Positions 1 through 38,023 of a DNA stretch of 63,217 nucleotides are shown here, in pieces (within the stretch, counting starts at the first letter, position 1; every line of letters starts with the position of its first letter). Origin of the DNA: Escherichia coli (GTDB taxonomy: Bacteria; Pseudomonadota; Gammaproteobacteria; Enterobacterales; Enterobacteriaceae). The stretch lies in NCBI RefSeq assembly GCF_003334255.1, contig NZ_QOWU01000026.1, one strand, 5' to 3'. Position numbers and translations under genes: made by a program. The notes beneath the pieces were generated by a model. That model was not told the DNA's origin. It did no database searches and saw only the letters and a list, made by a program, of their open reading frames with translations.

Positions 1-107
1 ACGCGAGGCATCGTCTTAACGAGGCACCGAGGCGTCGCATTCTTCAGATGGTTCAACCCTTAAGTTAGCGCTTATGGGAATTATCCCCGGCTTTTTTATG
101 TATGGTC

Positions 108-1310: not shown

Positions 1311-1636
1311 ATTTGCTCCAAATATGAGGCAGGTTAAATTTCCGTGCACATTCTATGTAACATGGTTAAGGAAAACGAGATCTGACACACACTATAATGA
1401 CGTCCTGTGACAGGCTTCAAAAATAGTGATCTGTCATACATTTCTGCTATGTTGTGTATGGAAGCTGAAAGTTATGTAAATGTGCTAACATTAAACATAA
1501 CCATAACATTCAAGTCATCAATCTTTTCGTAGTCATAATCCTGGTCTATCAGAGAAATCACCACAATCCATTTAAATGAATTTGATAATCATTCTCGTTT
1601 GGCATAGCATGAAACATAGCAAAGGCTATGTTTTAG

Positions 1637-36505: not shown

Positions 36506-36722
36506 ATCTCACCTTCCCCTGTGATTAACCTGATGATATTGGACAAAAAAACAACGCAGGCTGACAAACGATAAAATTTGCCTTTCACATGAGGTAAATT
36601 GCATCAATGGAGTGATTTACATCTAAAAATGAAGGTGAATTGAGATATGGTTCACTTTAGCTCATCTCATAGCTGAAATTTTGCCGCTATTTTTTTACAC
36701 TTAAGCGAAAAATGAGGTGATT

Positions 36723-37658
36723 ATGGAACCCCTTCGTGAAATAAGAAATCGGCTGCTTAACGGCTGGCAATTATCAAAAATGCATACTTTTGAAGTGGCT
36801 GCCAGGCATCAGTCCTTCGCCCTGGCGGCAGAGGAATTGTCGCTGAGCCCCAGTGCGGTAAGTCACCGTATCAATCAGCTGGAAGAAGAATTGGGCATTC
36901 AGTTGTTTGTTCGTTCCCATCGCAAAGTGGAATTAACGCACGAGGGGAAACGTGTTTATTGGGCGCTAAAATCGTCGCTGGATACCCTGAACCAGGAAAT
37001 TCTTGATATCAAAAATCAGGAGTTATCGGGAACGTTAACTCTGTATTCCCGGCCCTCTATCGCCCAATGCTGGTTGGTGCCCGCATTAGGTGACTTTACA
37101 CGCCGGTATCCGTCTATTTCGCTCACCGTGCTCACTGGTAATGACAACGTCAATCTGCAACGTGCCGGAATCGATTTGGCGATCTACTTTGATGATGCGC
37201 CGTCAGCGCAACTCACTCATCACTTTCTGATGGATGAAGAAATCCTGCCAGTATGTAGCCCGGAATACGCTCAAAGACATGCTTTAACCAACACGGTAAT
37301 TAACCTGTGTCACTGTACGTTGCTCCATGACAGACAGGCATGGAGCAACGACTCCGGTACGGATGAATGGCATAGTTGGGCGCAACATTATGCGGTTAAT
37401 TTGCCGACATCTTCTGGAATTGGCTTTGATCGTTCTGATTTAGCTGTTATTGCCGCGATGAATCATATTGGGGTGGCGATGGGAAGAAAACGCCTGGTAC
37501 AAAAAAGGCTTGCCAGTGGTGAGCTCGTCGCGCCGTTTGGCGATATGACGGTGAAATGCCATCAGCATTATTACATCACCACATTACCGGGCAGGCAGTG
37601 GCCAAAAATTGAAGCGTTTATTATCTGGCTAAGAGAACAGGTAAAAACCACTTCATAA
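36723..37658 (+). CDS. dsdC: LysR-family activator DsdC
   Basis: ORF 36717..37658; start at MEPLREIRNRLLNGWQLSKMHTFEVAARHQSF (311 aa); divergent from dsdX. Confidence 0.9.
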   Translation: MEPLREIRNRLLNGWQLSKMHTFEVAARHQSFALAAEELSLSPSAVSHRINQLEEELGIQLFVRSHRKVELTHEGKRVYWALKSSLDTLNQEILDIKNQELSGTLTLYSRPSIAQCWLVPALGDFTRRYPSISLTVLTGNDNVNLQRAGIDLAIYFDDAPSAQLTHHFLMDEEILPVCSPEYAQRHALTNTVINLCHCTLLHDRQAWSNDSGTDEWHSWAQHYAVNLPTSSGIGFDRSDLAVIAAMNHIGVAMGRKRLVQKRLASGELVAPFGDMTVKCHQHYYITTLPGRQWPKIEAFIIWLREQVKTTS

Positions 37659-37753
37659 TGAATAAAACCACGAGTTCCTGGTGTGCCTTATTCGGCCTGC
37701 TAGTTCGAATTTAATTTACGGTTTTTATGTGGTTTTAGGGATAAACACAAGGA

Positions 37754-37828
37754 TGGTGTCCCCTGCAGGAATCGAACCTGCAATTAGCCCTTAGGAGGGG
37801 CTCGTTATATCCATTTAACTAAGAGGAC
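37754..37828 (-). tRNA. argW: tRNA-Arg (anticodon CCU)
   Basis: Minus-strand 75 nt: GTCCTCTTAGTTAAATGGATATAACGAGCCCCTCCTAAGGGCTAATTGCAGGTTCGATTCCTGCAGGGGACACCA; 7-bp acceptor stem, GGTTCGATTCC T-arm, CCU in anticodon loop, 3' CCA. Confidence 0.9.
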
Positions 37829-38023
37829 ATTGTTGCGTATTGATTTTGGTTGTTCACCATATGACTGATAATACCGTCTTTATGGTTTTAAAATCAAGGT
37901 GTAAGTTCGTTTTTGTTCATGGTTGATTATCTTCTTTTGCGTTGAAAAGTGTTTTGTTCACTTGCTAATGCGTACATATTGAGTACAGAATACATTATAA
38001 ACTTGTGTACAGGATATAAAGCA

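Follow-up and report, generated by a model that had tools for sequence, protein, structure and literature searches.

Insertion of a Stx2a-phage-like prophage into the 5′ part of the Escherichia coli tRNA gene argW, and a conserved promoter-like motif that faces the rebuilt gene

The argW locus of this Escherichia coli genome raises the question of how a prophage can lie on the 5′ side of a tRNA gene that is itself intact, and where such an element is attached. The window, i.e., the whole stretch of 63,217 nt that was analysed, contains a single tRNA gene, a tRNA-Arg(CCT) called on the minus strand by ARAGORN. The genes dsdA, dsdX and dsdC lie on the plus strand on its 3′ side, and 195 bp past its 5′ end is the TTG start codon of an integrase gene that is read on the plus strand and points away from the tRNA (Table 1). 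A first-pass annotation of this DNA had placed a prophage on the 5′ side of an intact argW, with a P4-type integrase past the tRNA 5′ end reading away from it, and the tRNA call and the position of the integrase confirm this arrangement. The distance of about 95 bp that it gave between dsdC and the argW 3′ end proved exact; the spacer has the same length as that between pawZ and dsdC in K-12, and is joined to argW in 911 empty-site genomes.

The layout of K-12, where the first-pass annotation placed the CPS-53/KpLE1 element between the argW 3′ end and dsdC, was checked in NC_000913.3 and is as stated: the order is yfdC(+), argW(+), CPS-53, pawZ and dsdC(−). CPS-53 occupies positions 2466369–2476583 and begins within the last 15 nt of argW, and pawZ is a 15-nt fragment of the argW 3′ end with dsdC(−) 95 bp beyond it.

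Table 1 Features on both sides of argW, in window coordinates
Feature	Position	Strand	Description and basis
dsdC	36723..37658	+	Flanks argW 3′ side; ORF list and RefSeq annotation of identical sequence
Native chromosomal spacer	37659..37753		95 bp, dsdC stop to argW 3′ end
argW, tRNA-Arg(CCU)	37754..37828	−	Intact, 75 nt; ARAGORN; read as a hybrid gene
Interval that must hold the strand exchange	37805..37823	−	tRNA nt 6–24, D-arm; position-5 marker and end of attP/attB identity
att identity block	37805..37829	−	25 bp, in tRNA sense TGTCCTCTTAGTTAAATGGATATAA; tRNA nt 1–24 plus one upstream base
Prophage body, lambdoid, Stx2a-phage-like	37830..63217		Runs past window end; early genes through Q, plus methyltransferase pair
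Candidate sigma-70-like promoter aimed at argW	37868..37897	−	Consensus scan; element-borne; putative function
Three direct TGnGTACA repeats	37969–37976, 37980–37987, 38004–38011	+	Candidate P′ arm-type integrase sites
Tyrosine integrase	38024..39193	+	389 aa; Arm-DNA-bind_3 (DUF4102) and Phage_integrase; PHROG 1
Small HTH protein, likely excisionase (recombination directionality factor)	39177..39359	−	PHROG 66, E = 3e-7

Apart from the gene itself, no copy of a 3′ or 5′ argW segment is found within the window with three mismatches allowed; the far end of the prophage therefore lies beyond the window, and the far junction was read from complete genomes. A megablast search with window positions 36700–39300 against 5426 complete E. 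coli genomes found the whole dsdC–argW–int junction in 25 of them, among which are O121:H19 and O145:H28 strains, G1/2 (100% identical), and WG5::PA8 and WG5::PA2. The last two are, judged from their names, apparently laboratory lysogens of Stx2a phages, and they carry the prophage at exactly the same argW site. The WG5::PA8 prophage extends from int past stx2a and the tail genes as far as a giant LPD38 gene, after which yfdC follows on the same strand as argW. The gap of 221 bp before yfdC holds TTATATCCATTTAACTAAGAGGACA (L004 14077–14101), identical to window positions 37805–37829, and in G1/2 the corresponding repeat at the yfdC junction (L060 21507–21531) lies ~62.9 kb from argW. A direct repeat, for which the first-pass annotation had proposed a search, does exist at the far end; it matches 37805–37829 and not the segment 37829–38023 named there. 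Read in tRNA sense, the repeat is T + GTCCTCTTAGTTAAATGGATATAA and spans the 5′ acceptor strand, the D-stem, the D-loop and three bases of the returning D-stem.

In virion-derived phage genomes the far-end (P) arm, the 25-bp block (L005 1477–1501 in vB_EcoP_phi345, for instance) and the int-proximal (P′) arm are contiguous, which gives attP. The empty site was rebuilt by joining the chromosomal side of the window to the yfdC side over one copy of the block, and the resulting attB is present uninterrupted, with best matches of 100%; counted as coverage of at least 80% of the reconstructed attB, 911 of the 5426 complete E. coli genomes have it. The comparison with empty sites at the argW–yfdC junction, suggested at the outset, thus finds yfdC, argW and dsdC without interruption. 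The att anatomy, attP, attB and both junctions are in our view established. The insertion was thus clean and site-specific, with its target in the 5′ part of argW, and the argW of the window is a hybrid, in which nt 25–75 are chromosomal and at minimum nt 1–5, and up to nt 1–24, are element-derived.

That this could be conventional integration at the tRNA 3′ end which only looks reversed, e.g., after an inversion, accords with the general rule of 3′ integration (Islander has 3760 islands with a 3′ fragment and 159 with a 5′ fragment), but is refuted by the junction sequences and has virtually no probability left: the far junctions in WG5::PA8, G1/2 and WP2-S18-ESBL-08 carry a 5′ fragment that is oriented like the tRNA, attP holds nt 1–24 and not the 3′ end, the window contains no 3′ argW fragment, and empty-site genomes have the dsdC flank joined directly to the 51 chromosomal nt of argW. 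Conventional integration had been expected to show itself by a 3′ piece of argW at the far end; what is found there is the 5′ fragment. The related suspicion that the island uses a different attachment site was right in that the site is not that of CPS-53 and IntS, and wrong insofar as the site still lies within argW, in its 5′ 24 nt and one upstream base.

The point of strand exchange can be narrowed down further with four E. coli genomes that carry diverged relatives of the integrase (~84–87% DNA identity) at the same site. At tRNA position 5, three of the four have C for T; strain 720632, the fourth, has a further C at position 2. The element in WP2-S18-ESBL-08 is an unrelated siphophage of 46.5 kb, and here the rebuilt tRNA begins GTCCCCT, whereas the stub on the yfdC side retains the host sequence GTCCTCT. 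Position 5 was accordingly brought by the element in this genome, and exchange took place 3′ of nt 5. As identity between attP and attB stops after nt 24, the crossover is bounded to nt 6–24, i.e., to 19 bp, and we regard this interval as established. Within it, the D-arm stem (GTTA...TAAC) forms an inverted repeat around an 8-nt loop. Symmetry of this kind is used by tyrosine recombinases at anticodon and T loops (TIGER/Islander 2020 paper). The overlap region itself would lie somewhere within nt 6–24.

These data also bear on whether the target could be the intergenic (promoter) DNA between yfdC and argW, with the overlap with the tRNA incidental and restoration of the gene unneeded, to which the start of the identity block one base upstream of the tRNA in the window phage might point. 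In the O145 variant, however, the base at −1 differs and the block is 24 bp long and wholly inside the tRNA; the position-5 marker places the crossover inside argW; and across genera the tRNA is the only chromosomal sequence that is shared, with a nearly invariant D-arm. An intergenic target is contradicted by the marker and the 24-bp block, and we consider it most improbable.

Hence, we hold it to be very probable that an argW-type, Stx2a-like lambdoid prophage was put into the 5′ part of argW by a DUF4102-type integrase, with exchange in the D-arm and reconstitution of the gene. The attP carries a copy of tRNA nt 1–24 and recombines with chromosomal argW within nt 6–24, in the D-arm. After integration, the int side has a full-length tRNA gene whose 5′ end and entire upstream DNA derive from the phage, and on the yfdC side, ~63 kb away, the native promoter of argW is left behind together with a stub of its 5′ 24 nt. 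The argW 3′ end remains free as a separate attB for IntS-type elements, so that one 75-bp gene can host two elements.

With respect to the known modes of integration, the direct repeat of a tRNA segment at both ends, together with the presence of that segment in attP and of an uninterrupted attB in relatives, identifies the event as tRNA-gene-restoring integration. It departs from the usual configuration, in which the element lies 3′ of the tRNA and a 3′ fragment is displaced, in that the displaced piece here comprises nt 1–24. The event can be described as tRNA-gene-restoring integration in mirror image, where the element supplies the 5′ piece instead of the 3′ piece. In the classes that Williams defined in 2002, the block reportedly starts in the anticodon loop, the T-loop or the 3′ acceptor region and runs to the gene 3′ end. 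The present block extends from nt −1 to nt 24 and its identity stops before the anticodon arm, which places it outside those sublocation classes. It falls into the 5′-end/D-loop sublocation class, for which an element upstream of the tDNA and a repeat of the 5′ acceptor half, D-stem and D-loop are diagnostic.

The integrase contains PF13356 (residues 3–85, E = 7e-17) and PF00589 (residues 202–364, E = 4e-17), and the predicted P4-type class follows from this domain architecture, as the first-pass annotation had it. Residues R237, K264, H326, R329, H352 and Y361 are invariant among 15 homologues and probably represent the catalytic R, K, HxxR, H and Y. Homologues of 389–391 aa with 62–91% identity occur across Enterobacterales. 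The likeness to IntS of CPS-53 is limited to 29% identity over 93 residues of the arm domain, and the IntS-like integrase on the other side of argW in O157:H7 likewise shows 29% in the arm domain. The low identity and the use of the opposite gene end set the element apart from IntS/CPS-53-type argW elements, and two unrelated integrase subfamilies thus work on opposite ends of argW.

The small gene that overlaps the end of int on the other strand encodes a protein of PHROG 66, ‘excisionase and transcriptional regulator’, and it is labelled Xis/excisionase in the phage records P27 and Stx2a_F451. The TGnGTACA blocks upstream of int are kept in all aligned loci, and two similar GTAC motifs are present in the opposite attP arm; the repeats are probably arm-type Int binding sites. 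They overlap the expected location of the int promoter.

Among the 5426 complete E. coli genomes, argW and the integrase are contiguous in 223. At least 150 E. coli genomes have the order intS(−)–argW(−)–int(+), with both argW ends occupied, and the VT2phi_272 record (HQ424691; L007 1–2759) likewise has argW between an IntS-type integrase on its 3′ side and the present integrase on its 5′ side. Where both ends are occupied, native chromosomal DNA may be limited to about 36 nt in the middle of the tRNA gene.

The same geometry extends beyond E. coli. A cross-species scan with one genome per species returned 41 loci, and of the 24 loci with an integrase at least 72% identical, 23 have tRNA-Arg(CCT) on the opposite strand, a count that includes two loci with truncated integrase copies; the exception is L021. 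The distance from the tRNA 5′ end to the int start is ~195 bp in most of the conserved loci, and the divergent loci L029 (65%) and L046 (57%) have the same geometry with a gap of ~173 bp. Together, the loci with conserved geometry represent at least 12 named genera, which establishes conservation across genera. A Klebsiella pneumoniae homologue (P0017, 86% identical) has the same geometry beside tRNA-Arg(CCU), and one K. pneumoniae contig carries a second integrase on the tRNA 3′ side. The remaining loci, with identities of 31–63%, have no tRNA nearby, and their integrases presumably aim at something other than tRNA-Arg(CCU).

Several further observations concern the more distant or unexpected members of this set. 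In the relatives L030, L031, L033, L034, L036, L038, L039, L042 and L049 (53–63% identical), the 2.5 kb upstream of the integrase contain no tRNA, and these loci look like a sister group whose target is a different one. The E. coli integrase cluster P0115 is 57% identical and has 3325 members, and both its contigs end 227 bp upstream of the gene. Locus L015, labelled as a Flavobacterium psychrophilum MAG, and locus L019, from Martelella alba, carry an enterobacterial-type argW and integrases of 81–83% identity, which looks like mis-binning or contamination and not like true hosts.

Of 29 hybrid tRNA genes, 28 have a fully paired acceptor stem, and compensatory changes are seen between its element-derived 5′ strand and its host-derived 3′ strand, with G7–C66 in three loci and U3–A70 in Proteus penneri. 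This fits selection for a working tRNA, although the covariation could also stem from a requirement that attP and attB match. The sole mismatch, C2 opposite A71 in E. coli 720632 (L010 1555–1629), lies beside an integrase truncated by IS1, so that element and tRNA may both be decaying in this strain. E. coli lysogens of related elements (L008 1555–1629, L009 1555–1629 and L054 71–145) have argW with C5 in place of T5. This allele turns the native U5–G68 wobble pair into C5–G68, and since it is carried in by the elements, lysogeny edits the sequence of the tRNA. In Enterobacter soli (L032) and Rosenbergiella collisarenosi (L037) the tRNA-Arg(CCU) ends in AATA or ACTT, not ACCA, which could reflect another element inserted at the 3′ end, or a gene that does not encode its CCA.

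As integration displaces the native promoter to the yfdC side, the rebuilt argW must be transcribed from the element. A candidate for such a promoter lies in the element DNA upstream of the tRNA, with a −35 hexamer TTGATT (37897–37892), an 18-nt spacer and a −10 hexamer TATTAT (37873–37868) that ends 39 nt before tRNA +1. In an alignment of this DNA from 24 sequences (the window and 23 loci) most positions are variable, and CTTGAT, a G and TAnnAT stand out. The information content is 1.54 bits per column in the −35 hexamer and 1.41 in the −10 hexamer, vs 0.59 in the 18-nt spacer and 0.65 in the leader. Scored without alignment, TTGnnn-18-TAnnAT ranks first or second among the sigma-70-like sites of 27 of the 28 sequences, in the same register. 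The motif is oriented outward, from the prophage towards the tRNA, and there is no other feature of the element downstream of it. Against a promoter speak its scores of only 7–9 out of 12 relative to consensus, a spacer longer than the 17-nt optimum, and the result of the 600-bp scan, which gave two sites where 1.1 are expected. We infer that TTGAT-18 nt-TAnnAT is likely the promoter of the rebuilt argW; it would drive the gene from outside, and its transcript would begin with a leader of ~32 nt for removal by RNase P.

The upstream region of native argW has a different apparent arrangement, TTACCC-17-TATACT-CATGCCGCATT-tRNA when read by eye. A simple promoter scan of this native region did not call it because its −35 matches at only three of six positions. 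TATACT is followed by the GC-rich discriminator CATGCCGC, 11 nt before the tRNA. On the yfdC side, a GC-rich hairpin, CATGCCCCG-n11-CGGGGCATG, is found in the P arm where the LPD38 gene ends, at a distance of ~115 nt from the argW stub left there (L004 13960–13990 and L060 21390–21420). It could serve as a stop for transcripts from the orphaned native argW promoter; a terminator scan gave no call for the hairpin at this gene end.

The conserved TTGAT-18 nt-TAnnAT block might, on the other hand, be an accessory site for recombination in the P′ arm, bound by IHF, Xis or Int, in which case the rebuilt argW would either not be expressed or depend on read-through from another source. The block has the core on one side and the putative arm repeats on the other, the position that the H′ IHF site has in lambda, and TTGAT is ATCAA, the IHF core, on the other strand. 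In addition, argW is not expected to be essential, as argU likewise reads AGG. However, conservation peaks precisely at the TTG of the −35 hexamer, at G −14, and at three positions of the −10 hexamer (T, A and the last T). The two hexamers keep a constant distance of 18 nt, the sequence of the spacer varies freely, and the TTR element of IHF is not conserved in the 24-sequence alignment. Furthermore, the motif is directed out of the element into the tRNA, and hybrid tRNAs that are intact and fully paired are kept in 28 of the 29 loci. Since the remainder of the IHF consensus lacks conservation, this reading is retained only as a rival to the promoter, and we judge it somewhat unlikely.

The promoter reading has a physiological extension, which we put forward tentatively, as an idea short of even chances. 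The conserved outward promoter of this integrase clade would take over the host's rare-codon tRNA-Arg(CCU) upon lysogeny, with an AT-rich discriminator and a leader of ~32 nt in place of the native ones, and decoding of AGG would then be set by the prophage and not by growth-rate or stringent control. In the literature, we found no paper on an element-supplied promoter for a tRNA gene targeted at its 5′ end, or on promoter replacement at argW. The conserved promoter-like motif is possibly the only new part of the present analysis, the 5′ geometry being documented already.

The prophage itself is a mosaic variant of the known argW Stx phages. From int to Q it is collinear with PA8, with blocks of 93–98% identity and several segments replaced, and it has PHROG matches to a repressor, a helicase, Q and a methyltransferase. 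Positions 42072–45261, 50277–51685 and 52441–52600 have no PA8 match or only short ones, and the BsuBI/PstI-type restriction–modification pair of PA8 (L003 17346–19765) is largely missing from the window, where the match is limited to the final ~300 bp of the endonuclease gene. The antiterminator gene Q is at 58158–58688, and the window ends ~4.5 kb later, within or just after the methyltransferase pair; the position of stx in PA8 corresponds to a point beyond the window end. At 59394–62509, downstream of Q, the window encodes a 653-aa protein (PHROG 13671 ‘DNA methyltransferase’, E = 0) and a 364-aa protein without assigned function, where PA8 has only an annotated methylase remnant. By description, the pair resembles a two-subunit 16S rRNA methyltransferase of Stx phages, which is described for PA8 in PMC10810198.

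The att–int–xis segment of the window is 99.9% identical in the records listed here for argW Stx phages (PA2, PA8, PA28, VT2phi_272, Stx2a_F451/F723/F765, ArgO145 and vB_EcoS_P27). The same 25-bp block is annotated as attL at 1..25 in the PA8 record (KP682374) and at 1371..1395 in the VT2phi_272 record (HQ424691), where it overlaps tRNA-Arg at 1320..1394. A preprint on O145:H28 used a 24-bp att for prophages at argW, and from 2012 at the latest argW has counted as a standard site for Stx2a phages. In the STEC papers argW figures simply as a locus, and we found no discussion in them of 5′ versus 3′ integration; in the passages found of the TIGER/Islander 2020 paper, 5′ use is not mentioned.

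Integration at the 5′ end of a tRNA gene is a minority mode that is already known. A Klebsiella preprint (bioRxiv 10.1101/2020.11.02.365908) describes an integrase clade, I.d, at the 5′ end of the tDNA arg2A, with a sublocation in the D-loop that it calls novel and with two islands on a single tDNA. As at argW, those elements lie upstream of a tRNA-Arg gene, their repeat comprises the 5′ acceptor half, D-stem and D-loop, and two elements are possible on one tDNA, one per end; the host species differs, and the likeness to arg2A and clade I.d is by description. CPS-53/KplE1 with IntS uses the same tRNA gene, an integrase of the same domain architecture, and restoration of the gene from an attP-borne fragment, however, at the opposite end of the gene, in its last 15 nt, with pawZ displaced beside dsdC. 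A further parallel is found in dusA-associated integrases, which insert into the 5′ end of their target gene (PMC4482086). By inference these elements, too, must replace the 5′ end of the gene and its upstream signals; their target is protein-coding, unlike argW.

The argW site is among the main Stx2a-phage sites used in typing O157:H7, O121 and O145 strains. The location of the phage at the argW 5′ end explains how two integrases can flank one 75-bp gene in so many complete genomes, and why assays by junction PCR need to be placed on the yfdC side. With apparent lysogens, attP sequences from virions and many empty sites, argW offers a clean and experimentally accessible case of the 5′ mode, in which the element must bring a promoter besides a piece of the gene. 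Lysogeny would rewire the expression of a rare-codon tRNA if the conserved promoter is active.
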